Source: Candidatus Brocadiia bacterium
Lineage (GTDB): Bacteria; Planctomycetota; Brocadiia; CAIUPP01
Length of the DNA stretch: 64,000 bases
Assembly (NCBI GenBank): GCA_050015075.1
Contig: JBEKCB010000007.1
Location: 96,001-160,000 of the forward strand
Direction of reading: 5' to 3'
Shown: positions 4,303 to 64,000 of the stretch, one piece after another
Layout of the letters: each line of letters begins with the position of its first letter
Position numbering within the stretch: position 1 is the first letter of the stretch
Translations under genes and position numbers: made by a program
Notes under the pieces: generated by a model
Databases searched by the model: none
Seen by the model: the letters and a program-made list of their open reading frames with translations, nothing else
Told to the model about the DNA's origin: nothing

Positions 4303-4790
4303 CGTTTGGGAGCGTCTTTCATGAATTTGACTTCAAGAATGCCGTTACGGCACGTGTGGCTCATGTTCGCCGGCAGAAAAGCCGACGGCAGAAGCACCTC
4401 CTTGCGATATTTCTGGTCCCCTTTCTCCGCGGCGATGGTCAGGATGTCGTCCCGCAGTTCAAGCTGGACGTCGCCGGATCCCATCCCCGGCATTTCGACC
4501 AGGACGAGGACATGATCCGCCTCGTCGAACAGGTCTACCAGGGGTTCACGCACGGGGTGGACGACGGCTTTGCCGGTCTTCTCGTCCTTCCGAAGATTGC
4601 CGAAACGTTCGACTTTGATTCCTTCATTGCCGATTCCGACGCGAATTGAATACCCGACAACGCCGCGGGTTTGTCCGGTCGCGGGGTCGCGGATGTCCTT
4701 AGTCTCGTGAAGTTCCTTTCCCGATTCCGCCAACTCAGAAAGTTTTTCGAGGATTGTGCCCAGTCTGTCCACGATTCCGCTGGAGCCCAT
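4299..4790 (-). CDS. Hsp20/alpha-crystallin protein (GvpH-like, archaeal-type sHSP)
   Basis: REPLVDLFDE...VEMPG...YRKEVLLP...NGILEV; GGAGGAG RBS before ATG 4790; GTGA/ATGA-type overlap with the Cdc48 gene. Confidence 0.88.
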   Translation of the reverse strand: MGSSGIVDRLGTILEKLSELAESGKELHETKDIRDPATGQTRGVVGYSIRVGIGNEGIKVERFGNLRKDEKTGKAVVHPVREPLVDLFDEADHVLVLVEMPGMGSGDVQLELRDDILTIAAEKGDQKYRKEVLLPSAFLPANMSHTCRNGILEVKFMKDAPKR

Positions 4791-4816
4791 GAGGTCATTC
4801 TCCTCCAAGATTTGTT

Positions 4817-5884
4817 TTACATCGTTTGCCGTGTCGCATTGACATCCTCCACTCCAGCAAATGAAATGCCATAGCTCTTGATTTTCCCGTGCAGGGTCTT
4901 GTAATCCACTTTCAACAGACGCGCCGCCCTGGCTTTGTTTCCTCGCGTCTGCCTCAGGACCTGAATGAGAACACTCCGCTCAACGTTAGCGACAGCATGG
5001 TGGACGACTTCCTTGAGAGAGAGACTGCCGTCAAACTCCGCGCCACTATCGGGCTGAGCAAGGTTCGTCACGGAACTACCGTCCGTCAGGTGCAGATGTT
5101 CCGGAAGAATCTCCTTCTCCGCCACGAGCACCGCGGATCGGATGGCGTTGCGTAATTCCCGGACATTCCCAGGCCAGGAGTACACGAGGAGTATCTGCAA
5201 AGCGGGGCGCGACAGCGTGATGGTTTTGTTCATTTCTTCGTTGGCGATGCGAAGGAAACGGTTTGCGAGATACTCGATGTCCTCCTTGCGTTTGCGCAAC
5301 GGCGGGATCACGATGTTGAACTCGTTCAAGCGGTGATAAAGGTCGCGCCGGAATTTCTCCGCGTGCACCAGCGCAAGCAGGTCATCATTGGTGGCCACAA
5401 TGAGGCGGGGATTAACTGCAACCGGCTGCGTTCCACCCACGCGGAAGACTTGTTGTTCCTGCAATGCACGAAGCAATTTCGGCTGCAGATCAAGCGGGAG
5501 ATTTGATATCTCATCGAGAAACAGCGTGCCCCCTGTGGCAATTTCAAACTTTCCCAACTTGACTCGGTCTGCGCCCGTGAACGCTCCCTTCTCGTGGCCG
5601 AACAATTCCGACTCGAGCAGCGTGGGGGAAATTGAGCCGCAGTCCATGGGAATGAAAGGGCCTGTGTCGTAAGGGGGAGAACGATGGAGCGCGTTGGCAA
5701 TGACCTCTTTGCCGGTGCCGGTTTCACCGCAAATGACCACCGTTAGCGACGTAGATACAACGAGCTTCACCTGCCCACAGATGCGGGATACGTGCGTGCT
5801 CGGCCCCATCATATGGTGCAAAAAGGAATCGGCGTCCACTTCCAAGCCAGCCAGCGTGAAGTGCTCAGTATCAGTCGAGCGCAT
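4817..5884 (-). CDS. Sigma54-dependent enhancer-binding protein (AAA+ plus Fis-type HTH) without a receiver domain
   Basis: GETGTGKE, ELFGHEKGAFTGA, LFLDEI, WPGNVREL and a C-terminal HTH; only about 25 aa precede the AAA domain. Confidence 0.93.
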   Translation of the reverse strand: MRSTDTEHFTLAGLEVDADSFLHHMMGPSTHVSRICGQVKLVVSTSLTVVICGETGTGKEVIANALHRSPPYDTGPFIPMDCGSISPTLLESELFGHEKGAFTGADRVKLGKFEIATGGTLFLDEISNLPLDLQPKLLRALQEQQVFRVGGTQPVAVNPRLIVATNDDLLALVHAEKFRRDLYHRLNEFNIVIPPLRKRKEDIEYLANRFLRIANEEMNKTITLSRPALQILLVYSWPGNVRELRNAIRSAVLVAEKEILPEHLHLTDGSSVTNLAQPDSGAEFDGSLSLKEVVHHAVANVERSVLIQVLRQTRGNKARAARLLKVDYKTLHGKIKSYGISFAGVEDVNATRQTM

Positions 5885-5897
5885 ATTTGTCAACATA

Positions 5898-6539
5898 TTA
5901 ACAGGGCGCTAAAAAAACCTTTTTGGACCACACAGAGGCAGTCTCTGCAGATAGTTGTGTAACCCGGATGTCGTCCGGAAGACGGCCGTTGAGCGAATGA
6001 AGCATTCCCAGGAAGATGAGGCCTGTTTCACCCTGTTTCAGAGTCTGGCCGATCCGTTCTGCGATGTAATGGTCGCGCATGTCGAGGATGCGTCTATTGC
6101 GTTCCACGCATTCAGCCGACTTTCCGTTCCGGGCGGAAGCGCCCGGAGCCAGAAGCTGCCGGGCCAGTTCATATTCCTGGATGAGCAACTCCGGAGACTC
6201 GGTGCCGGTTAATTGGGCGCCGCGTTCCATGAGCTTCAGCAGGAGCTGATGATTGAAGCTTCCGGACTTGGCTATCGTGTGGACGATCTCCACTTCACGG
6301 CCGCAGTTCGGCAAGCCGTCCTGATAAAGCCGCACTCGCTCCCAGGCCAGGCGGAGGTTCCCGATCACTTCCTGAACTTTGGTCCAGAATTCGCGGATAT
6401 CTTTGACATGCCGCTCCCATTTGGCCTGGCCCATGCGTTTTACATAGGCCTGCCGAACCAGTTTGCTCATCTTTCCGAAGTCGGCTTCGGTGTGAACCAC
6501 GGGTACCCAGATTAGTTTTCTCGTCAAATGATCGTTCAT
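5898..6539 (-). CDS. Hypothetical protein, first gene of the gas-vesicle accessory operon
   Basis: 213-aa ORF tightly packed against the bEBP gene; globular composition (LYQDGLP, GTESPELL). Confidence 0.75.
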   Translation of the reverse strand: MNDHLTRKLIWVPVVHTEADFGKMSKLVRQAYVKRMGQAKWERHVKDIREFWTKVQEVIGNLRLAWERVRLYQDGLPNCGREVEIVHTIAKSGSFNHQLLLKLMERGAQLTGTESPELLIQEYELARQLLAPGASARNGKSAECVERNRRILDMRDHYIAERIGQTLKQGETGLIFLGMLHSLNGRLPDDIRVTQLSAETASVWSKKVFLAPC

Positions 6540-7065: not shown

Positions 7066-7719
7066 CTATAGTTTGGCAATTCCTGCTTTGATGGCGTAAC
7101 GGACGAGGTCGGTCTGTTTGTGGATGCCCAGTTTTGCCGCAAGATGGTTCCGGTGGGCGTGGACAGTGTTGTCGGACACCTCCAGCGCGGCGGCGACTTC
7201 TTTGTTGCTGTGGCCTTCGGCTATGAGTTGCAGCACTTTCCTTTCCTGCCCGGTGAGCGCCGAGGCGGGGCTGGCCTTCCGCTTCCCCTTCTTCCCTTTG
7301 AGAACGTCTTCAACGACGAAATGGGCGATCTTTGGACTGAGATAGTAGCGTCCTGCGTGGACCTCCCTCACGGCCTTGATCACGTCCGGGACGGCCATTT
7401 CCTTCGTCAAGTATCCCCGCGCGCCGGCCGCCAACGCCTCCTCCACCATGGGTTTCGTATCGTGAAGGCTCAGGATGATGACCTTTGTGGCCGGAGACCT
7501 TTTGACCAGTTCTTTAGCAGTCTCGATTCCGTTCATATTGGGCATGACGATATCGAGGATGGCGACGTCGGCCGGCCGGGTCTTGACTATCTCCAGGACT
7601 TCCTGGCCGTCCGAAGCCTCCCCGACGACCGCGATATCCTTTCCGCCGCTTTCAATCTTCAATCGCAGCCCCTCGCGAACCACCGGGTGATCATCGGCAA
7701 TGACAACGCGAATGCTCAT
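7066..7719 (-). CDS. NarL/LuxR family response regulator
   Basis: VVIADDH, ILDIVMP, GYLTK receiver motifs; LTGQERKVLQLIAEGHSNKEVA LuxR HTH. Confidence 0.95.
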   Translation of the reverse strand: MSIRVVIADDHPVVREGLRLKIESGGKDIAVVGEASDGQEVLEIVKTRPADVAILDIVMPNMNGIETAKELVKRSPATKVIILSLHDTKPMVEEALAAGARGYLTKEMAVPDVIKAVREVHAGRYYLSPKIAHFVVEDVLKGKKGKRKASPASALTGQERKVLQLIAEGHSNKEVAAALEVSDNTVHAHRNHLAAKLGIHKQTDLVRYAIKAGIAKL

Positions 7720-7976
7720 GGGCTGCTCCCTCCGCGGTGATCGCCTCCGCATTGTGCCTGGCAAGCTGTAGCGCATTGATCCCATTTTACATTGGGAGTG
7801 CGCTCACTCAAGGAAACTTTGTCGGTAGTCAAGAATACCTGCCAATATTGCCTCCCGCGAGCATTCCCGGTGGAATTCGTGGGCGCGTGATACGTCAATT
7901 GCCGCGCGTCTCGATCCTCCGAGCCGAGTCGGGAAATAGATCCACGCAGCTCTCTCGCGTTATGCCAATCTTGCTC

Positions 7977-8182
7977 GACATATCGCATCTTTGGATCAAC
8001 TCGAAGACGCTCGGCGTCGTTCAGATCCTCATAACCAGTACACCGCTCATAGACAGACTGCCGCAGCAGGGGAATCATCCCGTGTCGTATCTTGCTTCCA
8101 GGTCGAGTATCCTTGGGATACTCATCCGCCATCGTCGTCACTCCCTGCGCTTTCTCCATCTCCCGATGCGCCGTCAGCGCCG
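7977..8182 (-). pseudogene. IS1380-family transposase N-terminal fragment
   Basis: ALTAHREMEKAQGVTTMA...RHGMIPLLRQSVYERCTGYEDLNDAERLRVDP resembles the IS1380 motif LLRQSVFGRLAGYEDxNDAERLRxDP; no complete transposase. Confidence 0.7.
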
Positions 8183-10113
8183 CAACTGAGCGGCAGGCTC
8201 ACGCGCAGCGTGGTTCCTTTCCCCCGCTTGGAATCAATCAGGCAGGCGCCCCCGGCGTAAGTCACCATCTCCTGTATCACACGAAGGCCCATGTGCGATG
8301 TTTGCCGCACCTGGTTTTCGGACGGATCGAATCCCGTTCCGTTGTCACGCACAGTCAGTCTGACTTCCTTTTTCAACGCCCTGAGGCTCACGTCCACTCG
8401 TTTCGCCTCACCGTGCGTGATGGCGTTCGTCAGCGCCTCCTGCGCAATGCGAAACAGAATTGTGGCAGTGTCTCCGTCCACTCGCCTTCGTCCCAGGGTC
8501 TCTCTGAAATGAATTCGGGTCTGCCCGCACTCTGTAATCTGAGAGAAGTGCTGTCGCAAGGCGGCGGGCAGCCCGAGGACATCGAGTTCGGGCGGCCGAA
8601 GTTGAATGGCCAACCCCCTCAGGTGGCCCACCGACTCGTCAAACAGCTCCCGGATCCGCTTCGTCCACTTGAGCGCTTCCTCACTTTTCCCGCAGCGGAG
8701 CCCCTCGTCAATCGCGTCAAGGTGGGCTGCAATCCCCACCGCCAGTGAACCCACATCGTGGTGCAAGGCGGACGACACCTGCCTCCTCTCATTCTCTCGC
8801 ACGACCAGAAGTTCCCGGGCCAGCCTCCGGGTTTTCTCCTCCGCCCGCTTGCGCTCGGTGATATCCAGAAACGCGCCGACCGCGCCGCGCACCTTGCCTT
8901 CCGCGTCGAACAAGGGAACGGCGTCACCCACGGTGTCCACCGAGGTGCCGTCCTCGAACGCCAGCGTCATCTCAAAGTTCTTCACCGCCTTCCCGGTGGC
9001 CGCGGCGAGCTGAACGGGCAGTTCTTTGGGCCGCAACTCGCGCCCGTTCTTCAGGGCGCGAAACGTCCTGGGTCGCTCGCCGGGCGGCGCGCTCTTGGAA
9101 GTGTTCGCATCGTGGGGGAGCCGTAACACGCGCAGGGCGGCGTCGGAGCTGGTCATGCGCCGGCAGGCGGGGTCGTGTGCGATGAAGATGAGGGCGGGCG
9201 TCGCTGCCAGCAACGCCGCGAGTTCATCCGCGCGGGCGCGAGCTGAAGCCTCGTTCTCGCGCAACTCCTCTTCCATCCGTACTCGTTCGGTGACGTCGCG
9301 GATCACCATGCTGGTACGCAGTTCCCCATGCCATCCGGTGAAGTGCGCCGAAGAGACTTCACCGGGAAATTTCGTTCCGTCCTTGCGCATCAGGGTCAGT
9401 TCGCCACGGAACCGGCCCGTGCGAGCGCGTTCTTCCAAGGCCGTCGCCATGCGCGGGTCCAAGCCGTCAACGACGCCGCTCTGCCCAACCTGCATCAACT
9501 CCTGCTCGGATCGGCCAAACATGCGGCAGGCCGCCTCGTTGGCGGCCAGAATGCGGCCATCCTGCGCCGTCAGCAGCACCGCGTCCATGCTGGAGGTCAC
9601 GAACGAACGGTAGCATCCCTCGCTCTCCCGCAGCGCCCCCTCAGCCCGCTTGCGATCGGTGATATCCTGGAGGACGCCCGAAAGAATGTTGAACTCGCCG
9701 GACGCGTCGCGGACCGGCATGCCCCGCGTGTGGATATATCTCAGTTCCCCATCGGGCCGCCGGATGCGAAACTCGGCATCGAGGGCCTGCCCGCTTGCAA
9801 GTGCCGCCTCGATCTCCTGGTTGAGGCGCACCCGATCCTCGGGATGAACCAGCGCGAGAAAGTCATCGAGCGGGGGCGCCGCGCTCCCAGCCGGCAGACC
9901 GAACACATCGCAGACACCCGCCGACCAGAATGTCTTGCCGGTCCTGAAGTCGCGTTCCCAATGGCCGAGATGGGCCATTTTCTCCGCGGCGCGATAGCTG
10001 GCTTCACTCGCCCACAGCTCTTCTTCCACTCGCTTCCGTTCGGTGATGTTCTGCCCTTGCGCGATGGCGGATGCCGGGGCTTTTCCGTCCGGAGAAGGAT
10101 TGGATTCTGTCAT
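8122..10113 (-). CDS. Cytoplasmic multi-PAS sensor histidine kinase (HisKA_3 type)
   Basis: Three PAS/PAC repeats (QDITDRKRAE, RDVTERVRME, LDITERKRAE), ERRQVSSALHHDVG H-box, FRIAQEALTNA, DNGTGFD, GKGTT. Confidence 0.93.
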   Translation of the reverse strand: MTESNPSPDGKAPASAIAQGQNITERKRVEEELWASEASYRAAEKMAHLGHWERDFRTGKTFWSAGVCDVFGLPAGSAAPPLDDFLALVHPEDRVRLNQEIEAALASGQALDAEFRIRRPDGELRYIHTRGMPVRDASGEFNILSGVLQDITDRKRAEGALRESEGCYRSFVTSSMDAVLLTAQDGRILAANEAACRMFGRSEQELMQVGQSGVVDGLDPRMATALEERARTGRFRGELTLMRKDGTKFPGEVSSAHFTGWHGELRTSMVIRDVTERVRMEEELRENEASARARADELAALLAATPALIFIAHDPACRRMTSSDAALRVLRLPHDANTSKSAPPGERPRTFRALKNGRELRPKELPVQLAAATGKAVKNFEMTLAFEDGTSVDTVGDAVPLFDAEGKVRGAVGAFLDITERKRAEEKTRRLARELLVVRENERRQVSSALHHDVGSLAVGIAAHLDAIDEGLRCGKSEEALKWTKRIRELFDESVGHLRGLAIQLRPPELDVLGLPAALRQHFSQITECGQTRIHFRETLGRRRVDGDTATILFRIAQEALTNAITHGEAKRVDVSLRALKKEVRLTVRDNGTGFDPSENQVRQTSHMGLRVIQEMVTYAGGACLIDSKRGKGTTLRVSLPLSCGADGASGDGESAGSDDDGG

Positions 10114-54434: not shown

Positions 54435-54519
54435 TGGGCGAGGAGGGGGTCGAACCCTCACGTCCCTAGCGGGACATCGGATTTTAAGTCCGATGCGTCT
54501 GCCATTCCGCCACTCGCCC
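54435..54519 (-). tRNA. tRNA-Leu(TAA)
   Basis: GGGCGAGTGGCGGAATGGCAGACGCA-TCGGA-CTTAAAA-TCCGA...GGTTCGACCCC; CCA not encoded. Confidence 0.95.
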
Positions 54520-54713: not shown

Positions 54714-56705
54714 TTACCGGGCGTATTTGAAGACGGCCACTCCATAGGGTTGAACTTCGAACGTCCCCTGGCAACGCCGACGGGTGAGCAACTCCACGGC
54801 CGGGCGCTGCAGCTTGAGCGTGGCCGGCTGGTTCGACAACTCGACGGCGATAAGACCTTCGGCCGCCCGGCCCTTGCGCGGGACAACGAGAAGGTTCGCC
54901 GAGGCCTCGGCGGCGGGGGCGACGCGCGCCTCAACTGCGGCGTCGAGGAGCAGCCGCTGCAGGTCCTGCTCGCCGGGGAGCGTGCCGAGGAGGATGATCC
55001 GCCCCTTGGCCATGCGCTTCTCGACCACGGCGGCCAAGCCTTTCATCGGGCCTTCGACATAGGTCGCCAGCGGCTTCGCGCCGTGGAGTTCGTATGAGTC
55101 GTACCAGAGCGCGCCCTGCGACTTGTGCCCGTCATTCCACAGGAACGAGAACGGCCGCGCGTCGCCCGGGATTTCATATTTGCAGCGTATGCCCGCCCAC
55201 TCTTCCAGCGAACCATACGGCGCGTGAGAGAACTTGGCGGCGTGCCGGTCGCGGATGTCGGTGAAGGGCCCGGCAATCCAGGTGCCGCCGGCCTCGATCC
55301 ATTTGCGCAACCGCTCGCGCAGGCTGCCTTCGTCGAGGTTCGGCAGGAAGGGCGAGAAGAGCAGCTTGTACGCCGACAGGTCCGCCTGTGCGTCGAGGAG
55401 GTCGGGCCGGAGTTGCGCCTGGATCATCGGGTGATAGATGTTGTTGACCAGCGTATCGCAGTACTTGAACCCATTGACGATCGGCTGGAACTCGAACATC
55501 CAGTACGCCGGCCCCGAGTAATGCAGCGCCAGGCCCGTGCGCACGGGACGGGTGCCGTTGAGGAAGCCGGCGGCGGCCTTCAGCCCCGTGGCGATCTCCT
55601 GAACCTCGCCGAAGATGTGCAGCGGGCGCCCCGCGCTGGAGACGACCGAGCCGTGCATGAGTTCCTGCCCGGCCCGGTGCGCGCGCCAGAGCCAGTAAAG
55701 GGTGGCCTCGCCGCCCAGAGCAAAAGGCAGCCACGAGTTCGCCCGGCAGAATCCCGGCTCGCGGTAACCGTTGGAAGCCGCCACACCGCCGTTCCAGCAG
55801 GTGGAGGTTTCCGTATTCCAGAAGGCCCGGTCCTTGAGCGACCGGCACAGGTCCATCCAGAACGCCGCCCGCCACATGTTGTTCGGCTTGGTGTAGTGGT
55901 TGAACTGGACGATGTTGAGCTTCCGTTCGATGTCGAAGTAGTTCAGCCCGAAGGCGGGCATCATGTCGGTGCCCACAGGCTGCCGGACGAGCCGGTGGAG
56001 GATATCGGCCTGGTGGTGGCAGAATTCCACGACGGAATCGGACTGGAAGCACATCCACGCCGTCTGAAGCGACGGGTGGTGCCACGTGTCGCTGCGAGGG
56101 ACGGGCAGTTGCGCGAAGGACTGGTAGGCCTGGCTCCACAGGTTATTGCACCAGGCGGCGTTGAGGGCCTCGATCGTGCCGAACTTCGCCCGCAGGGCGT
56201 CCTGGAATTTCTGCAGGCAGATGGGGCAGCAGCACGCGCGCGTGCCATAGGGGTACAGCTCGTTGTCAATCTGCCAGCCGATGACGTTGGGGTCCCGGCC
56301 GAACTCCTCGGCCATGCGCGTGACGATCCGCGCGCAATGACCGCGATAGACGGGGCTGTTGGAGCAGACGTGCCGTCGCGCGCCGTGCTGGGCGCGCACG
56401 CCCTGCTCGGACATGACGAGTGATTCGGGATAACGCTCCGTCAGCCACGCCGGCGGGGTGGGCGTCGGCGTGCCCAGGATCGTGGCGATGCCGGCCTTGG
56501 CCAGTTTCCGGACCACGACGTGGAGCCAGTCGAAATCGTACTGACCTTCCTGCGGCTCCATCCGGCTCCAGGCGAACTCGCCGATGCGCATCACATTCAT
56601 GCCGGCCTGCTTCATCAGGGCGATGTCGTCATCCACCTGCGAAAACGGCCAGTCCTCCGGATAATAAGCGGCGCCGAGGTAAGGGGGTTTGACTGTGTTG
56701 CTCAT
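54714..56705 (-). CDS. Beta-galactosidase, GH42 family
   Basis: YYPEDWP, RIGEFAWSRMEP, WQIDNE, GQELMHG, trimerisation domain. Confidence 0.93.
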   Translation of the reverse strand: MSNTVKPPYLGAAYYPEDWPFSQVDDDIALMKQAGMNVMRIGEFAWSRMEPQEGQYDFDWLHVVVRKLAKAGIATILGTPTPTPPAWLTERYPESLVMSEQGVRAQHGARRHVCSNSPVYRGHCARIVTRMAEEFGRDPNVIGWQIDNELYPYGTRACCCPICLQKFQDALRAKFGTIEALNAAWCNNLWSQAYQSFAQLPVPRSDTWHHPSLQTAWMCFQSDSVVEFCHHQADILHRLVRQPVGTDMMPAFGLNYFDIERKLNIVQFNHYTKPNNMWRAAFWMDLCRSLKDRAFWNTETSTCWNGGVAASNGYREPGFCRANSWLPFALGGEATLYWLWRAHRAGQELMHGSVVSSAGRPLHIFGEVQEIATGLKAAAGFLNGTRPVRTGLALHYSGPAYWMFEFQPIVNGFKYCDTLVNNIYHPMIQAQLRPDLLDAQADLSAYKLLFSPFLPNLDEGSLRERLRKWIEAGGTWIAGPFTDIRDRHAAKFSHAPYGSLEEWAGIRCKYEIPGDARPFSFLWNDGHKSQGALWYDSYELHGAKPLATYVEGPMKGLAAVVEKRMAKGRIILLGTLPGEQDLQRLLLDAAVEARVAPAAEASANLLVVPRKGRAAEGLIAVELSNQPATLKLQRPAVELLTRRRCQGTFEVQPYGVAVFKYAR

Positions 56706-56751: not shown

Positions 56752-58227
56752 TTACGCGCGCGTGGCCAGTTCATGCGGCTGGACTCGGGGCGAGTGCGCG
56801 CCGCAGCTCTCCGCTTTTTCGGCCTCCGGCGTGGCCGCCGGGCTCGCGTAAAATCCGAACTCGCGCAGGAGCCGCAGTTTCGGCAGCACGTTGCCTTCCA
56901 GGTCAATGTGGAAGAACCCGGAGAAGATGTCCGGGTTGTCCGTGATGAGCTGGAAATACCGCCGGTACCGCTCCGGGATGCGGATGCCGCCGTCCACGTA
57001 CGTCTCGTGGCCGGTGCAGACGAACTCCGGCAGCAGCCAGGGCGAAAATTCGAGCTTCGCCTTCGCCGACCACTCGCGGTACACCTCCGTCTGCGGCAGA
57101 AGCGAGAGCAGGCTCGGCAGGATGCGCGCACCCATCATGCGGAACGAGATCATCTGGAAGAGCGACTGCCGGAAGTCCTCGATCGTCTCGAACGGGAATC
57201 CCCAGACGTAGAACGTGTCCACGCGCGGGAAGATCGGGATCGCCTTCGGGACGATCTCGAGCGCCTGCGCGGCGGTGAAGCCCTTGCGGATGATCTCCAG
57301 CACGCGGTCCGAGCCGGACTCGATGCCGAACCGCAACTCCAGGCAGCCGCACGCGGCCATCGCGCGCATCATCTCCTCGTCCACCAGGTTCACGCGGCCG
57401 AACGCCTTCCATTCCAGCTTCAGCCCCGTGCGCGCCAGCTCGTCGCAGAACGCCATCACCTGCCGTTTGCCGGAGACGAAGAACTCGTCCTGGAAAAGGA
57501 ACATCTCCGCGCCGGCGCGCTCATGGATGAGCTTCATCTCCGCCACGATGTTCCGCGGGCTGCGCGAGTAGCTCTCCAAGTTCCAGACCGGCGCCACCGA
57601 GCAGAACGTGCACGGATACGGGCAGCCGCGGCTGGTCATCAACCCGTAACCGGCGTACCGTTTCAGCTCGATCTTGTCGAAGGCGGGGAACGGGATGCTG
57701 TCGAGGTCGCGGATGCGCGCGCGGTCGGGATTGTGGCGGATTTTTCCCACGCCGTCGCGGTAAGAGATGCCGGCGACGCCGGAGAGGTCGCCGCCGGACT
57801 TCAGCGCGCGCAGGAGGTCCGGCCCGGTCAGCTCGCCTTCGCCGCGGCAGATGACGTCAATCCATGGAAAGCGCGCGAGCACTTTCTCTTCGACCGACTT
57901 CGACCCGACGCCGCCGAGGACCAGCGTGCGGCCGGGATAGCGCTTCTTCAGGGCCTGCAGCGCCAGGACGGTGAACGGCAGCAGGTTCGCCATGCACGAA
58001 AGGCCGATGACCGGCGCGGGCTCTTTCAGGAAATCGAGGAAGGCGGCGATGTCGAACGGATCGTCGGTCGGGCAGGTCTGGTAGTCGCGGAAGTCCACCT
58101 CGAAGCCGGCGTCCTCGAGCGCGCGAGTGAGATACAGGCAGCCGAGCGGCACGTGCAGCTCGCGCTCGACCTCCTCGCCGTAGCGCATGAAGAGCATGTT
58201 CAGGTTGATCAGCGTGATGTCGGCCAT
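56752..58227 (-). CDS. Cobalamin-dependent (class B) radical SAM enzyme
   Basis: B12-binding domain (PLGCLYL, IGLSC, VLGG, RGEGE) plus SRGCPYPCTFC (CxxxCxxC), FGIESGS. Confidence 0.93.
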   Translation of the reverse strand: MADITLINLNMLFMRYGEEVERELHVPLGCLYLTRALEDAGFEVDFRDYQTCPTDDPFDIAAFLDFLKEPAPVIGLSCMANLLPFTVLALQALKKRYPGRTLVLGGVGSKSVEEKVLARFPWIDVICRGEGELTGPDLLRALKSGGDLSGVAGISYRDGVGKIRHNPDRARIRDLDSIPFPAFDKIELKRYAGYGLMTSRGCPYPCTFCSVAPVWNLESYSRSPRNIVAEMKLIHERAGAEMFLFQDEFFVSGKRQVMAFCDELARTGLKLEWKAFGRVNLVDEEMMRAMAACGCLELRFGIESGSDRVLEIIRKGFTAAQALEIVPKAIPIFPRVDTFYVWGFPFETIEDFRQSLFQMISFRMMGARILPSLLSLLPQTEVYREWSAKAKLEFSPWLLPEFVCTGHETYVDGGIRIPERYRRYFQLITDNPDIFSGFFHIDLEGNVLPKLRLLREFGFYASPAATPEAEKAESCGAHSPRVQPHELATRA

Positions 58228-58237
58228 GCTGTTTTCC

Positions 58238-58948
58238 CTAGGGTTGGTCCGGACGCATGCCTGTAACCACCATCGGCGGCTTGGGCACCTGCGGCGTGAC
58301 AGCGGCATCCGTGTCCGGCGGAGTCGCCGGCGGATTCGTAGTCGCCGGGCTGCCGGGCGGCGTCTCCGCGGGAAGCGACGGCGGCCGGTCCGGTCGAACG
58401 CCGCCGAAGTTGGTCGGGCGCTTCGGATTGTTCACGGCATCGGTATCCGCCGGTTCTGCTACGAAGCCAAAGACCGCGTGGGAAAACACCGGAGCGCTCC
58501 CCGTCGTTGACTGCGCGGCGGAGGGCGGCTGGTCGGGTCTGCTGCCGGTCGGCGGAGGCGGCGCTGATTCGCCGCACCCGGCCAAATCCGCTCCGAGCGC
58601 GACGAGCATCACCGCCGCGGCCGCGCCCATGAGGACCGGCCGGAGTTTCGCGTCAACGTTGGTCCGGCTGATGATCGCTTCGAGCTGCGCATGCGGGATG
58701 CCCGCGAGCATCGCGATTTCCGAGGGGCGCAGTTCCAGCCCGATCGTCTTCGCCGCCTCGGCGCGCTGCTCCAGGAGCAATCGGCGGAACTGCGGGTCCA
58801 CCGCCGCCTTTTTGATCAGCACCTCGACCCCGCGCGGCACGCCGCCCAGCGGCTTGCCCGCGCCCGGCGGCCGCCCGCCGACGATCGTCGTCCGCACCGA
58901 CTCCTGCTCGATTCGGCGTCCGCCGCCCTTCTGGTCCGGAGCGCTCAT
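58238..58948 (-). CDS. NHLP-like leader / internal lipobox / Pro-rich protein with three G-x-R-P-D-x-P repeats (putative radical SAM substrate)
   Basis: VEVLIKKAAVDPQFRRLLLE..AEAA..IGLEL; hydrophobic stretch plus LAGC; TGSRPDQP, GGVRPDRP, TGMRPDQP; AAGGAG RBS; stop codon 10 nt before the rSAM ATG. Confidence 0.75.
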   Translation of the reverse strand: MSAPDQKGGGRRIEQESVRTTIVGGRPPGAGKPLGGVPRGVEVLIKKAAVDPQFRRLLLEQRAEAAKTIGLELRPSEIAMLAGIPHAQLEAIISRTNVDAKLRPVLMGAAAAVMLVALGADLAGCGESAPPPPTGSRPDQPPSAAQSTTGSAPVFSHAVFGFVAEPADTDAVNNPKRPTNFGGVRPDRPPSLPAETPPGSPATTNPPATPPDTDAAVTPQVPKPPMVVTGMRPDQP

Positions 58949-59150
58949 CGTTGCGTTCTCCTTCCATCGGTTCGACACTCACATTCGGCAGGATTCTACA
59001 CCCGTTGAATGAAAAAGCAACTGAAATGTTACGTCCTGCGGCGAGAGGCGGCCATCATTGCCCTCCGAAAATGCGCCGGGCCGATTGACAGAATTACGGC
59101 TGCGTGTAGAATGGCGCAGGGCGAACGGCAACAGGAACGGGAAGGGTCCG

Positions 59151-59846
59151 ATGAAACCAGGATCGCGCGGCGCTTCGGCGGGTGCGGGCGGAAGCCGGCC
59201 CGAGCTGGAAAGTCTCGGTGAAGTCGGCATCCTCTTCGCCGACCTTTCCGGCTACACCCAGGTCGTCTATCAGTGCGTAGGCGATGAAGACCGGCTTCAG
59301 CGCCTGTCCATGGCGCTTTACCGGCTCTTCAATGCGCCCGGCCATGCGCATCCGGACATTTCCGTGGAAGGCTACGCCGGGGACGGCTTCCTGGCGTTCA
59401 GCCGCGGCCGGACGCCGGTCCGCACCATGTACGACTTCGCGCTGACTTTGCACAGCCGTTTCGACGCGGAGACTCGGCCGCTGATGCTGAACCTGGGCTT
59501 TCGCGCCAGCGCGGCGCTGCGCACCGGGCTTCACATCGGGCGCGTCTGGCGCATGAAGTTGTCCGCAGAGCCGGAGCCGCCGCGCTATTCCAACATCTCC
59601 GACGCGATCAACGTGGCCAGCCGCGTGGTGGCCGGGCAGGTCTGCCGCCGGCGCGGCCTAGCCGTGACGCGCGACTGCTATCGCCGCCTGCTCTACGCCG
59701 GCCGCAAGGAAGTCCGCGAGCCGGACGAAGTCATCCAGGACCGCAACCAGTATCCGGAGCCCATCGAGATCTATCACATCCGGCCGGAGGAGCATCAGCA
59801 GATCGTCACCCGCTCGGCCGGACAGGCGAAGAATCCGCCGGCGTGA
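59151..59846 (+). CDS. Stand-alone class III nucleotidyl cyclase domain protein
   Basis: ILFADLSGYT, GDGFLA, LRTGLHIG, SDAINVASRV. Confidence 0.85.
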   Translation: MKPGSRGASAGAGGSRPELESLGEVGILFADLSGYTQVVYQCVGDEDRLQRLSMALYRLFNAPGHAHPDISVEGYAGDGFLAFSRGRTPVRTMYDFALTLHSRFDAETRPLMLNLGFRASAALRTGLHIGRVWRMKLSAEPEPPRYSNISDAINVASRVVAGQVCRRRGLAVTRDCYRRLLYAGRKEVREPDEVIQDRNQYPEPIEIYHIRPEEHQQIVTRSAGQAKNPPA

Positions 59847-62182: not shown

Positions 62183-62213
62183 GCCGATGTCATGCCGGTG
62201 GTTGAGGAACCTG

Positions 62214-64000
62214 ATGGACAACGGGCTTGCTTCCTGGTTCAGAATATGGCACCCGCGGTATCGGGGCATTCTGGTTCAACTGGCCGTCGCCGCCGCGATT
62301 GCCGCCGCGCTCTTATACGTCCAGCAGGGTTTGCTCGACCTTCTGACGCTGTCGCTGGCGTCCAACCCTGCGGCGCCCGCCGAGTCGGGCGAGCATGCGG
62401 ACAAGGCGCTGACGGTCCTCTCGAATGATGCCGCCTCGCTGGGCCTCACGCCGGCATCGCTGCCGCTGCTCGTCCTGGGACTCTTCATCCTGGTGGCGGT
62501 CGTCGCGAGCGCAATAGACTACTGGAAAGTGCGCGTGACGGGCCGGCTGAGAGTCCGAAGCGAAGATGACCTGGAAGCCGAGATCCTCGCGCACCTGCTG
62601 CGGCAGGACGACGCGTTCTTCGCCCGCCATTCGCCCTCCGAGACGGTCAATCGCCTGGCGGTGGATGTGTACCGGACGACCGAAAACCGGCCGAACCTGA
62701 TGCTCGCCGTGGCCTCGGTCGCCCTCATCGTCAGCAGCCTGGGCTACTTTGTGCAGAAGGACTGGCGGCTGGCGGCGGTGGCTTTCGGAGGCTGCGTCGC
62801 GGGCGCCCTGTGGACCTTCCACATGACCAAGCGCGTCAAGGACATGGACGCCAGCTACCTCCGCTCCGACGACCGGGTCAAATCGCACTTCGAGGATTGC
62901 CTGAGAGCGTCTCCGGAGATCCAGGTCGGCGACCTCCATCGCAAGGTCCGCCGGCATTTTGAGGAGGTCCAGGAGGACCGCACGCAGACGTATCTGCGCT
63001 ATGTGGGCCTCAACGCGGCGCTGAGCGTGGGCAGCACGGTGTGGTACTTGCTGGCATTCATCGCCATGATCTTCGTCGCCCTGCACCTGCGAGGGAGCAG
63101 CGGCGAGAACTCGTCGCTGGCCCTGGTCCCGGTGGTGATCTGGGCGTTGCCGCGCCTGTTCAACAGCGCCTCGTCGCTGGTCTTCCTCAACCTGCAGTTC
63201 CAGCTCGCCCGGACCAGCATGAAGCGGCTGCTGGAATACGAGGCCCTCGCGTCGCCGCCGCCGGCGGGGCAGGCGCAGACGCGCGCCGGCGAGGAAATCG
63301 CTCGCGTGGAACCGATCCGCGCCGACCGGGTTACCTATCGGTACGCAGCCGCCGACGGCACGCAACAAGTCGGCCTGTCGGAGGTCAGCGCCACGTTCGT
63401 CCCCGGCCAGTGGACGGCGCTGGTGGGCACAGCCGGCTCGGGCAAGTCCACCTTGCTCAGGCTGCTGCTCCGGCGGGCCAAGCCGCATGAGGGCGAAATC
63501 TTTTACGGCGACCGGCCGCTTCAATCGCTTTCCGACCGGCAACTCGCCGATCTCCTATCCGTCATGCCCCAGTCGGTGGCGCTGCTGGATGCCGCGATTG
63601 GGGAGAACCTGCTGTTCGGCAGAGCCGCGCCCGCCGGCCGGACCTCGCCCGAGCTGACCGACGCGGACCTCGAAGTGGTGGAAAGCGCGGGCCTCGCAAA
63701 GGTCTGCCGGCTTAAAGCGCTCGACATGCTTCCGGAAAAGGAACGCGGTTGCGCGGAGTTGGCCGGAGGAATCGCGGAGACCCGGAACCGGCTTCGCGAG
63801 CGGCTGCGGAAGGAATGCGGCGCGGTCATTCTGCCGTTCGAGGAAGGCCGCGCGGACGCGAAACACTGGGTGCTCGAGCACCTGTTGAACGGGCGGTGCG
63901 ACCGTGAAAAGGCCGCGCGGATCCTGCTGCATAAGACGCGCGCCGGCAGCTTGAAGGCGCTGCCCGGAACGCCGCTGGGCGTCGAACTCGTCCGCGCCGG
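62214..64000 (+). CDS. ABC exporter (TMD plus NBD), truncated at the window edge
   Basis: Open frame from 62187/62214 to the end of the window; TM helices; Walker A GTAGSGKST near 63425; Q-loop VMPQ...ENLLFG followed by a long insertion. Confidence 0.82.
   Translation, partial: MDNGLASWFRIWHPRYRGILVQLAVAAAIAAALLYVQQGLLDLLTLSLASNPAAPAESGEHADKALTVLSNDAASLGLTPASLPLLVLGLFILVAVVASAIDYWKVRVTGRLRVRSEDDLEAEILAHLLRQDDAFFARHSPSETVNRLAVDVYRTTENRPNLMLAVASVALIVSSLGYFVQKDWRLAAVAFGGCVAGALWTFHMTKRVKDMDASYLRSDDRVKSHFEDCLRASPEIQVGDLHRKVRRHFEEVQEDRTQTYLRYVGLNAALSVGSTVWYLLAFIAMIFVALHLRGSSGENSSLALVPVVIWALPRLFNSASSLVFLNLQFQLARTSMKRLLEYEALASPPPAGQAQTRAGEEIARVEPIRADRVTYRYAAADGTQQVGLSEVSATFVPGQWTALVGTAGSGKSTLLRLLLRRAKPHEGEIFYGDRPLQSLSDRQLADLLSVMPQSVALLDAAIGENLLFGRAAPAGRTSPELTDADLEVVESAGLAKVCRLKALDMLPEKERGCAELAGGIAETRNRLRERLRKECGAVILPFEEGRADAKHWVLEHLLNGRCDREKAARILLHKTRAGSLKALPGTPLGVELVRA

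Follow-up and report, generated by a model that had tools for sequence, protein, structure and literature searches.

Two adjacent genes, one encoding a 236-residue precursor protein and the other a class B (cobalamin-binding) radical SAM enzyme (rSAM), are inherited together across phyla, as computed from the precursor relatives and their loci. These genes lie in a 64,000-nt stretch of DNA from Candidatus Brocadiia bacterium (GCA_050015075.1, contig JBEKCB010000007.1, positions 96,001-160,000), which is referred to here as the window. We consider it reasonably probable that they form a self-contained modification module, in which a leader-guided rSAM would modify protein tails carrying the motif G-x-R-P-D-x-P before the tails are exported. 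An earlier note had described the gene pair from the DNA letters; its observation of the two genes was confirmed, whereas its interpretation as a whole was partly supported. The coordinates of all features are listed in Table 1.

Table 1. Features of the precursor gene and the rSAM gene in the window (all on the minus strand).
Feature	Position	Strand	Details
Precursor gene	58238..58948	-	236 aa + stop; translation, AGGAG before ATG, 452 relatives, alignment A1
N-terminal motif T-T-I-V-G-G-R-P-P-G	58862..58891	-	Residues 20-29; conservation in 27 N-domains
NHLP-clan (Os1348-family) helical domain	58673..58831	-	Residues 40-92; NF038399 match; predicted rSAM docking surface
Hydrophobic Ala-rich segment and lipobox L-A-G-C	58574..58639	-	Residues 104-121, then Cys125 (codon 58574-58576); invariant G124/C125 in alignment A1
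Heptad motif 1, T-G-S-R-P-D-Q-P	58526..58549	-	Residues 134-141; Gly 10 residues past Cys125
Heptad motif 2, G-G-V-R-P-D-R-P	58382..58405	-	Residues 182-189; aligned to G-x-R-P-D-R-P of relatives, the most distant at 46% identity
Heptad motif 3, T-G-M-R-P-D-Q-P	58241..58264	-	Residues 229-236, protein C-terminus
Class B (cobalamin-binding) radical SAM enzyme	56752..58227	-	491 aa + stop; Pfam B12-binding and Radical_SAM
B12-binding domain of rSAM	57814..58155	-	Residues 25-138; PF02310, E 5.4e-13
Cluster motif C202-x3-C206-x2-C209, radical SAM core	57601..57624	-	Invariant in rSAM alignment A2

Translation yielded the protein that had been described, with its elements in the order N-terminal motif, NHLP-clan domain, signal-peptide-like segment with lipobox, and a Pro/Thr-rich tail with three heptads. 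The N-terminal motif, the internal hydrophobic helix ending in LAGC and the three tail motifs reported by the earlier note were all present, and a D-T-D-A repeat was found 13-17 residues ahead of each of the last two heptads, again as reported. AGGAG is located 9 nt 5' of the ATG at 58948, and a longer, 246-aa frame with a GTG start was considered unnecessary for the precursor. The distance of 10 nt to the rSAM gene was also reproduced, with the last base of the precursor stop at 58238 and the ATG of the rSAM gene at 58227. All 13 aligned orthologs begin at the position equivalent to this ATG.

At least 452 relatives of the precursor were identified at E≤1e-3. In 17 of 21 loci, an rSAM ortholog was located directly downstream of one to six tandem precursor genes; the full-length orthologs showed 67-96% identity. 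The loci represented four or more phyla and came from Planctomycetota, Anaerolineales, Zixibacteria and Coatesbacteria. Beyond this pair, no gene family, and in particular no transporter or protease family, was common to more than four loci. An ABC transporter in the window showed ABC_membrane and ABC_tran only, with no peptidase domain at E≤0.001, and was conserved within the genus only. Analysis of 401 sampled genomes of the phylum revealed both genes in nine, rSAM only in three, the N-domain only in one and neither in 388. All three rSAM-only genomes involved short or cut contigs, one of them with a divergent NHLP gene upstream. Genome G061 contained a three-motif precursor (locus L016), but a search at E≤1e-60 found no ortholog of the rSAM; decay is suggested by a remnant second copy next to this precursor. 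Near-identical copies of the locus were also observed in many peat metagenome runs.

When the 112-residue tail from Cys125 to the C-terminus was shuffled 200,000 times, G.RPD.P occurred at least once in 289 shuffles, at least twice in one and three times in none. The whole genome has 39,797 stop-to-stop frames that are 60 aa or longer, and of these the precursor frame alone contained G.[RQ]PD.P three times. The repeats that the earlier note expected in homologs were retained by 109 of the 121 relatives examined, with 269 copies in total and the consensus G-I-R-P-D-R-P. The number of copies per tail varied from one to eight (many members had a single one), and the tails themselves ranged from ~30 to ~650 residues, some of them with folded domains such as a TonB C-terminal domain (TonB_C, one tail), helical repeats or pilin-like domains. 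Two positions were frequent in the family: the first heptad started a median of 10 residues past the Cys (interquartile range, 8-12), and in 33 proteins a heptad formed the exact end of the tail. Roughly one copy in three had Q, A, S, E or K instead of Arg at heptad position 3. Tail motifs persisted beside more distant rSAMs of 57-64% identity, as GSRPDVP, GIRADAP and GHRADRP. Two loci from genomes without rSAM (L027 and L033) had no strict heptad; the same was true, though an rSAM adjoins, of L029, two of the three precursors in L024 and others, and the tail in L046 was pilin-like.

The region that the earlier note had called nitrile-hydratase-leader-like was assigned to the NHLP clan through NF038399, but not to the classical NHLP leader TIGR03793 (12.3 bits; cut-off, 50.9). 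NF038399 (NCBIfam) matched residues 40-92 with 43.4 bits when the whole protein was searched and reached 45.6 bits with precursor residues 1-105 (curated cut-off, 40). It was the only curated family passed by the N-domain, it matched all 27 N-domains from the loci at E≤0.01, and the precursor gene was its sole match in its own genome. The AF2 model of the precursor had a mean pLDDT of 48.1 (57-70 over residues 41-110), with low-confidence helices at 39-50, 52-69, 75-82 and 86-95, and a Foldseek search of the PDB with this low-confidence model gave no match at E≤0.001. A PDB profile search with alignment A1 gave weak matches to 4ob1 (E 0.074) and 6lk7 (E 0.31). All of the in silico outcomes that the earlier note had said would count against it, including loss of the repeats or of the rSAM linkage in homologs, were absent, with the exception of the NHLP fold, for which model confidence was too low.

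Complex prediction placed the NHLP-like domain on the rSAM with scores of 0.84, 0.83 and 0.84, compared with 0.00 for the best of three controls; the runs had at least 39% of contacts in common, and partner pLDDT was at least 68. Of 80 solved complexes, 58 attained the mark used, as did two of 110 mismatched pairs; these counts hold only roughly here because our own alignments were used. In the model, precursor residues 37-46 and 74-96 formed the interface, and interface residues on both precursor and enzyme were invariant or nearly so. According to this prediction, the NHLP-clan domain (precursor residues ~37-96) docks on enzyme helices that are conserved.

As for the enzyme, both hallmarks of class B were found, a B12-binding domain (PF02310, 49.3 bits; cut-off, 32.1) and the core CxxxCxxC, together with a PF04055 Radical_SAM match (60.1 bits; cut-off, 29.5). 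Mean column identity among the orthologs was 75%. The AF2 model (pLDDT 69.7, pTM 0.75) had OxsB, CysS, TokK, TsrM, MgmA and AprD4 as top Foldseek matches (E 7e-15 to 3e-12, query-normalised TM 0.50-0.61). No NCBIfam equivalog was identified. The best profile was ApyD (NF050148), whose 171.5 bits lay so far below the cut-off of 750 that the window enzyme is not an ApyD ortholog, and TIGR04014 gave 80.8 bits against 360. The closest characterised rSAM profile was thus that of ApyD, a Tyr beta-methylase, rather than of PoyB/PoyC or Mmp10, the examples cited in the earlier note. The relatives included methylases (ApyD, rSAM_ocin_1, MgmA, CysS and TokK) as well as non-methylases (BchE with 137 bits, HpnJ, AprD4 and OxsB). 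Methyl transfer to carbon is the activity of most, not all, class B members.

Lipoproteins typically have a positively charged n-region followed by a hydrophobic region that is closed by the lipobox [LVI][ASTVI][GAS]C. The precursor conformed to this pattern, reading K-L-R, 18 uncharged residues and then D-L-A-G-C, and we interpreted the hydrophobic segment as an internal signal peptide suited to signal peptidase II. It is atypical for lipoproteins in having ~100 residues ahead of the n-region. In the family, a median of 16 residues separated the last charged residue from the Cys; lipobox position -1 was Gly in 120 of 135 members, and 92 of the 135 had T, L or A at position -3, a pattern looser than the consensus. 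The genome of the window encodes both lspA (96.9 bits; cut-off, 73.95) and lgt (156 bits; cut-off, 118.9). Most of 28 Cys-less members had A-x-A sites where the lipobox would stand, so the hydrophobic segment behaves like an internal signal peptide. The precursor proteins are read as exported and probably lipid-anchored. The lipobox pointed out by the earlier note was kept in the family, but the sister subclass, with its signal-peptidase-I-like A-x-A sites, is not of the lipoprotein type. Twin-arginine signals contain an R-R-x-F-L-type motif followed by a weakly hydrophobic region. The n-region of the window precursor (K-L-R-P-V-L-M-G) lacked such a motif, whereas 31 of 163 family members had R-R-x-[FLIVM]-[LIVMFK], seven had KR/RK and 98 had a single Arg; the sequences S-R-R-E-F-L-K and A-R-R-A-F-L-K occurred in two divergent members.

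On the basis of these data, we propose that in the cytoplasm the N-domain would act like a RiPP leader and keep the freshly synthesised protein bound to the enzyme, which would then modify the short linear motif G-x-R-P-D-x-P in the tail. Judged from the nearest characterised relatives, the likeliest chemistry, with about an even chance, would be methylation of an unactivated carbon in the Arg, Pro or Asp side chain. The hydrophobic segment would subsequently serve as an internal signal peptide for export of the tail. In the window protein and most relatives, signal peptidase II would cut at the lipobox, remove the leader and leave the tail lipid-anchored at Cys125, while in the sister subclass signal peptidase I would cut at A-x-A and release a soluble product. 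The products would be envelope proteins rather than small antibiotics. Several observations count against such a module. Signal peptides rarely begin as late as ~100 residues into a protein, and the n-region K-L-R-P of the window protein is not of the twin-arginine type. The Arg substitutions in the heptad, the precursors next to an rSAM that have no strict heptad, the rSAM-less precursor of G061, the non-methylases among the relatives of the enzyme and the low-confidence model of the precursor also weigh against it, as does the stricter conservation of the N-terminal motif.

A different substrate was also considered, namely the cytoplasmic N-terminal motif TTIVGGRPPG, with the NHLP-like domain as a follower-type recognition element and the tail motifs as periplasmic binding or sorting signals that the enzyme leaves unmodified; the protein might then remain a single-pass membrane protein. 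This motif was conserved more strictly than the tail motif, with eight of its ten positions (T21, I22, V23, G24, G25, R26, P27 and G29) unchanged across 27 N-domains and the motif itself found in 118 of 121 family proteins, and it has G-x-R-P in common with the tail motif. In addition, two rSAM homologs, P0126 (50% identity) and P0127 (43%), carry it fused ~40 residues ahead of the enzyme domain, as I-V-G-G-R-P or V-V-G-G-R-P, and no NHLP gene was found near the fused rSAM, at least on the P0126 contig. Because of this strictness and the fusion to the enzyme, the N-terminal motif may be the true substrate. Moreover, once the tail is exported, the N-domain alone stays in the compartment of the enzyme, and in bottromycin biosynthesis class B rSAMs already act on a core at the N-terminus of a precursor whose follower lies at the C-terminus. 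However, many tandem paralogs next to an rSAM begin only near residue 35 and so do not include this motif, yet they keep the tail motifs; beside divergent rSAMs, its Arg is lost (T-I-V-G-P-Q-P and T-I-V-G-G-Q-P) or the whole motif is absent (L047), whereas R-[PA]-D tails persist. The motif was also absent from the confidently placed interface residues, although a residue not named there is uncertain, and this absence is no evidence against contact. We regard this reading as unlikely.

The short repeated motif with variable linkers, the leader from the NHLP clan and the several precursor paralogs per locus would also fit a classical multi-core RiPP, whose heptapeptides are excised after modification and secreted as small peptides. 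We find this highly improbable, as the loci have no conserved neighboring protease or peptidase-containing transporter, many members possess a single motif, some tails contain the folded domains mentioned above, and the lipobox or A-x-A sites indicate general secretory processing. Similarly, it is very doubtful that the precursor-like protein is a membrane tether or regulator whose N-domain brings the rSAM to the membrane to modify a lipid or small molecule. The predicted docking of the N-domain, with a hydrophobic segment directly after it, agrees with such a role, as does the presence among the NCBIfam matches of the rSAM of HpnJ, HpnR and a ladderane-type rSAM, class B enzymes that act on lipids. 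But a tether leaves unexplained the conserved tail motif with its fixed spacing from the Cys and its C-terminal position, and also the up to six different paralogs before one enzyme gene, and the cleavage-type sites (lipobox and A-x-A) speak against a stable anchor.

Modification of the exported tails remains our preferred reading. It is conceivable, though we would put it somewhat below an even chance, that the system represents a new class of leader-guided protein modification, with a recognition domain ahead of a secretion signal and a modified G-I-R-P-D-R-P motif on envelope lipoproteins or soluble exported proteins, in which new Arg, Pro or Asp chemistry is possible and the N-terminal IVGGRP element may be a second site or an activator of the enzyme. 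With a RiPP-type domain in front of a general secretion signal, the leader would be removed by signal peptidase II or I of the cell itself, and general export would deliver the product. If so, cobalamin-dependent rSAM enzymes would gain a new substrate motif that is easy to recognise, perhaps together with a new side-chain chemistry, RiPP-style leader recognition would extend to exported proteins and lipoproteins from which ordinary signal peptidases remove the leader, and poorly studied Planctomycetota, Anaerolineales, Zixibacteria and Coatesbacteria would have a previously undescribed cell-envelope feature. As the system consists of two genes only, it is testable by co-expression and mass spectrometry. 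We found no published description of it, and in PMC10885120, a review from 2023 on the proteases that remove RiPP leaders, the term "signal peptidase" did not occur when the main text was searched.

Comparison with known systems revealed partial similarities. In proteusins, a long nitrile-hydratase-related leader likewise guides an adjacent cobalamin rSAM to the C-terminal part of a polypeptide (PoyA with PoyB/PoyC), and PoyB/PoyC are the class B rSAM C-methyltransferases of the polytheonamide-type members. The proteusin leader, as described in PMC10885120, has a double-glycine-type end, where it is cut by an ABC transporter that contains a peptidase domain and whose gene is close by. In contrast, the leader described here fits the Os1348-type NF038399 rather than TIGR03793, has no double-glycine end, and is followed by a signal-peptide-like segment with lipobox or A-x-A. 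No peptidase-transporter, epimerase or further tailoring gene is conserved alongside it, and its "core" is a tail as large as a protein in which a heptad recurs. Os1348 from Pseudomonas sp. Os17, the founder of NF038399, is an 85-aa helical protein (crystal structure 6lk7), regarded in PMC7726476 as a putative modified precursor. Unlike the window precursor, it has no hydrophobic segment, tail or heptad, and according to the same paper it is encoded beside a GNAT, a peptidase and a SagB-type dehydrogenase instead of a B12 rSAM. ApyD, the B12-rSAM of aminopyruvatide, shares with the window enzyme the peptide-modifying class B type and is its best-scoring characterised NCBIfam profile; its report (10.1101/2023.10.30.564719) presents an RRE-containing enzyme that C-methylates the side-chain beta-carbon of one Tyr. 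Its NCBIfam model spans 645 positions, whereas the window enzyme is 491 aa long and its predicted partner is an NHLP-type domain. MgmA (PDB 9ccb), which acts on methyl-coenzyme M reductase, is also a class B enzyme that methylates a residue of a full-length protein and was among the top matches in both fold and sequence, but it shows 19% sequence identity to the window enzyme, has another substrate and involves no leader or export element. Finally, the anaerobic sulfatase-maturating enzymes (AtsB/anSME) are cytoplasmic radical SAM enzymes that modify a short linear motif in proteins exported later by general secretion pathways. The nature of this target resembles that proposed here, but those enzymes are of the SPASM type, use no substrate leader and act on a single catalytic residue, whereas the present system combines a B12-type enzyme with a repeated motif.

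Translation of the minus strand yielded a 236-residue precursor, in which each feature described by the earlier note was found where that note had placed it: an N-terminal T-T-I-V-G-G-R-P-P-G string (the N-motif), a helical segment resembling a nitrile hydratase leader, an Ala-rich hydrophobic stretch ending in the lipobox L-A-G-C (Cys125), and a tail rich in Pro and Thr in which the heptad G-x-R-P-D-x-P occurs three times, the third copy forming the C-terminus. Three copies occurred in none of 200000 shuffles of the tail, and the precursor was the sole frame with three copies in its own 4.64-Mb genome. Two copies were found in just one other frame, located on the same contig outside the window (contig positions 62282-63436); it was rejected as a substrate, being repetitive, Arg/Pro-rich and without gene signs. 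Its repeat units measured about 150 bases, one frame carried two G-A-R-P-D-R-P strings, and the stretch is probably non-coding repeat DNA.

Judged by similarity, the precursor is a member of a large unnamed family. A search of a 5.8-billion-protein collection gave 3881 candidates and 452 proteins at E<=1e-3, most of them recorded as 'hypothetical protein' and a few named after tail domains (AgmX/PglI C-terminal domain, TonB); the top three feature hits in a protein atlas were likewise 'hypothetical protein' clusters only. The first ~125 residues were 50-65% identical throughout the family, the length and content of the tail were variable, and a Gly-Cys pair was invariant in an alignment of 18 precursors. 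The GxRPD repeats noticed in the window were also conserved in homologs: at least one strict motif (G..PD.P) was present in 109 of 121 proteins (the query and the 120 relatives listed), with 269 copies in all, of which 151 had Ile at position 2, 174 Arg at position 3 and 165 Arg at position 6. When these proteins were pooled with 51 precursor ORFs from the loci described below, two sets of partly overlapping membership, the motif with its flanks had the consensus P-x-T-[TKR]-G-I-R-P-D-R-P-P, the median offset of the first copy from the preceding Cys was 10 residues (interquartile range 8-12), and the motif was the exact end of the tail in 33 proteins.

The linkage to a radical SAM (rSAM) gene was not confined to the window. 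A scan of one genome per species yielded 21 loci, recorded under Candidatus Brocadiia, other Planctomycetota, Phycisphaerae, Anaerolineales, Candidatus Zixiibacteriota, Candidatus Coatesbacteria and unclassified bacteria, and in 17 of them an ortholog of the enzyme lay on the same strand directly 3' of the precursor gene(s). The full-length enzymes of the loci were 67-96% identical, four others being cut by contig ends, and each enzyme gene was preceded by one to six precursor paralogs. At locus L023, which had no adjacent enzyme, the contig stopped 113 bases past the precursor, and the enzyme was found on another short contig of that genome. No rSAM ortholog was detected at E<=1e-60 in the 6-Mb genome of locus L016 (G061), or in the one genome shared by loci L027 and L033 (G062). 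Just after the orphan precursor of L016, a second leader-type N-terminus of ~35 residues was in frame with a gene assigned by eye only to a pyruvate-dehydrogenase-E1-like family (locus positions 7708-9672), and this fusion has the appearance of a deletion scar, the lost part being the remainder of the module together with the rSAM gene. In an even sampling of the phylum (401 genomes; enzyme at E<=1e-120, N-domain at E<=1e-12), the enzyme was present in 12 genomes, the N-domain in 10 and both in nine; these are plain counts given without a test, since related genomes are not independent. All three enzyme-only genomes had the enzyme on short or cut contigs, and in one of them (locus L047) a divergent leader gene was found upstream of the enzyme. 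The same was true of L044, where the N-domain match at the stricter threshold was on a different contig. Since the mean column identity among 14 enzyme sequences from different phyla was 75% and the distribution was patchy (3% of sampled genomes), these observations suggest strong constraint and, probably, horizontal spread.

The model of the enzyme matched the solved class B enzymes OxsB, CysS, TokK, TsrM, MgmA and AprD4. Its score was below every NCBIfam equivalog cut-off, the top model being ApyD (171.5 bits versus 750), an enzyme whose product is described as beta-methyltyrosine (10.1101/2023.10.30.564719). In a library of 1.84 billion representatives only a few clusters were at least 50% identical to the enzyme, and the next relatives were a broad set of ~450-aa class B enzymes with 28-44% identity. 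The organism's own 4.6-Mb genome encoded 14 further class B rSAM matches (E<=1e-5, 24-36% identical), three of them also on the window's contig, at contig positions of ~52, 57 and 166 kb. A C-terminal stretch, Cys-Gly-Ala-His-Ser-Pro followed by a final Glu-Leu-Ala-Thr-Arg, was kept in 12 of the 14 aligned orthologs, and its Cys-containing part was absent from the enzymes of L024 and L029, whose precursors have no lipobox.

With regard to the N-domain, all 27 examples taken from the loci matched NF038399, the Os1348-family model of the NHLP clan, and the precursor was below the cut-off of the classical NHLP model (TIGR03793). Os1348, the founder of the family, comes from a Pseudomonas strain; it is helical and 85 aa long, and the gene neighbours described for it are quite different from those of the present precursors (PMC7726476). 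AF2 modelled the precursor poorly (pLDDT 48.1), Foldseek gave no match to the PDB at E<=0.001, and a PDB profile search with the precursor alignment gave E values of 0.074 and 0.31 only. When the enzyme and precursor residues 1-105 were both entered as alignments, prediction of their complex gave scores of 0.84, 0.83 and 0.84, against 0.00 for the best of three controls; at least 39% of the contacts agreed between runs and the partner pLDDT was at least 68. Of 80 solved complexes, 58 attain the mark used for docking, as do 2 of 110 mismatched pairs; these counts apply only approximately here, as our own alignments were used. The confident interface comprised residues 37-46 and 74-96 on the precursor side and residues 305-328, 350-365 and 453-458 on the enzyme side, and many of these residues were invariant. 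Predicted contacts include residues 76, 80, 88 and 92 of the precursor and 353, 357, 361 and 456 of the enzyme. The predicted complex supports binding of the enzyme by the N-domain.

The hydrophobic segment was analyzed in 163 family sequences that contain it. A Cys followed within 25 residues in 135 of them, with Gly at position -1 in 120 of these 135; the segment was flanked by positive charges on its N-side, and the last charged residue preceded the Cys by a median of 16 residues. Most of the 28 Cys-less members had an A-x-A-like site after the segment instead (A-P-A|Q, V-R-A|Q, A-R-A|D, A-A-A|D, A-Y-A|E), and A-x-A is the signature of signal peptidase I. A segment that served only as a membrane anchor would not readily account for two kinds of cleavage site at one place; these patterns fit a cleaved signal peptide. 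A TonB C-terminal domain in one tail (29 bits versus 24.6) and pilin-like character in further tails would also fit an exported tail, and lgt and lspA are encoded in the organism's own genome. An R-R-x-F-L n-region was present in 31 of the 163 sequences and two divergent members resembled the full twin-arginine motif, which would suit export following cytoplasmic modification. Tat export does not fit the window's protein, whose own n-region is K-L-R-P, and the idea is kept as a lead only.

Several unusual tails were observed in the same family. Proteins at L041 (917-1495, minus strand, downstream of the rSAM gene) and L046 combined the N-domain and hydrophobic segment with tails like type II secretion pseudopilins and had no heptad motif, and structural alignment linked the query to an atlas cluster in which 85% of the members had PF08334. 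In the Cys-less subclass (L024, L027, L029 and L033), the tails consisted of repeated helical units of ~50-60 residues joined by Thr/Ser/Pro/Gln-rich linkers, for which Pfam gave sub-threshold ARM/HEAT-like hints only.

Which motif the enzyme might act on was considered from the pattern of conservation. Of all features, the tail motif tracked the enzyme best: it was retained, with R-A-D variants for R-P-D, beside enzymes of only 57-64% identity, and its strict form was absent from both loci of the enzyme-less genome G062. The correspondence was incomplete in both directions, as three copies were kept in L016, from the other enzyme-less genome, and no strict motif was found at L029, in two of the three L024 precursors or at L046 despite an adjacent enzyme. 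For the N-motif, which has G-x-R-P in common with the tail motif, three roles are conceivable: a second substrate site, the principal site or an activating element. It is linked to the enzyme independently, because in two enzyme relatives, P0126 (694 aa, 50% identical) and P0127 (654 aa, 43%), an N-terminal extension of 190-230 residues has I-V-G-G-R-P or V-V-G-G-R-P at its end, ~40 residues ahead of the enzyme domain, and no NHLP-type gene was found on the contig of P0126 (L049). However, many paralogs have no N-motif, and it has degenerated in places where the tail motif is preserved, which argues against the N-motif as the only site.

Neighbour clustering covered 22 loci (L012-L033; L010 and L011 were excluded as copies of the window or its genus), which contributed 1125 ORFs with a length of 70 aa or more. 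Beyond the precursor and rSAM, real further gene families reached at most 4 loci. Clusters present in 13, 12 and 10 loci were rejected as partners, as the example ORF of each overlapped the rSAM gene of its locus in another frame or strand (judged from the coordinates of one example per cluster), and a cluster in 22 loci consisted of low-complexity GC-rich frames. The Guanylate_cyc, Trypsin_2, ABC-transporter and GH42 neighbours recurred beside the module within the same genus only.

Coordinates of the module and its neighbours (window positions unless a locus is named)
Feature	Position	Strand	Remarks
tRNA-Leu (anticodon TAA)	54435-54519	minus	between GH42 beta-galactosidase gene and membrane-protein ORF
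GH42 beta-galactosidase	54714-56705		neighbour gene
Class B radical SAM enzyme, 491 aa	58227-56752	minus	starts ten bases past precursor stop; B12-binding domain, radical SAM core, CxxxCxxC
C-terminal enzyme stretch	~56758-56811 (residues ~473-490)	minus	from enzyme alignment
Precursor, 236 aa	58948-58238	minus	AGGAG 9 nt ahead of ATG
Tail length polymorphism, variant strain	58330-58379 and 58452-58573		contigs join across 48 and 120 bases, in frame; between marked 'not known'
N-motif	precursor residues 20-29	minus	from translation
Guanylate_cyc-domain protein	59058-59846	plus	divergent from precursor
Trypsin_2 protein, 763 aa	59891-62182	plus	divergent from precursor; N-terminus FHA-like by eye only
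ABC transporter	62187-63998	plus	divergent from precursor
P0126 gene	L049 6001-8085		after second radical SAM gene (4561-5979), before ABC transporter

Near-identical DNA was present in numerous metagenome runs on peat, drawn from 23 studies; two of these are possibly the source of the window's DNA. In two peat runs, contigs from a variant strain showed in-frame length differences from the window, of 48 and of 120 bases, within the tail. This indicates that natural populations are polymorphic in tail length and would fit conserved motifs separated by a disordered linker that changes fast. In a metatranscriptome run, a single 162-base contig was identical to 58364-58525, together with four pieces of 33-35 bases with loose ends that looked like rSAM genes of other organisms. 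These matches were discounted as evidence of transcription, because DNA can occur in such libraries and contigs reveal neither strand nor transcript ends; uncovered parts of the module are equally uninformative.

Finally, the system was compared with known pathways. No published account of this two-gene system or its motif strings was found in literature of incomplete coverage that excluded supplements; the matches listed for the motif strings were the Os1348 paper, instances of 'girpd' from unrelated fields, and an unrelated acronym. The features for which no counterpart was found in print were a leader fused to a secretion signal (lipobox or A-x-A), protein-sized and partly folded 'cores', and the repeated heptad. 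As far as tested, the system fails the defining features of the proteusins, namely the TIGR03793 score, processing at a double glycine by a transporter, and the presence of additional tailoring enzymes. What it shares with proteusin-type RiPP pathways is a leader domain of the nitrile hydratase clan encoded next to a class B rSAM enzyme.
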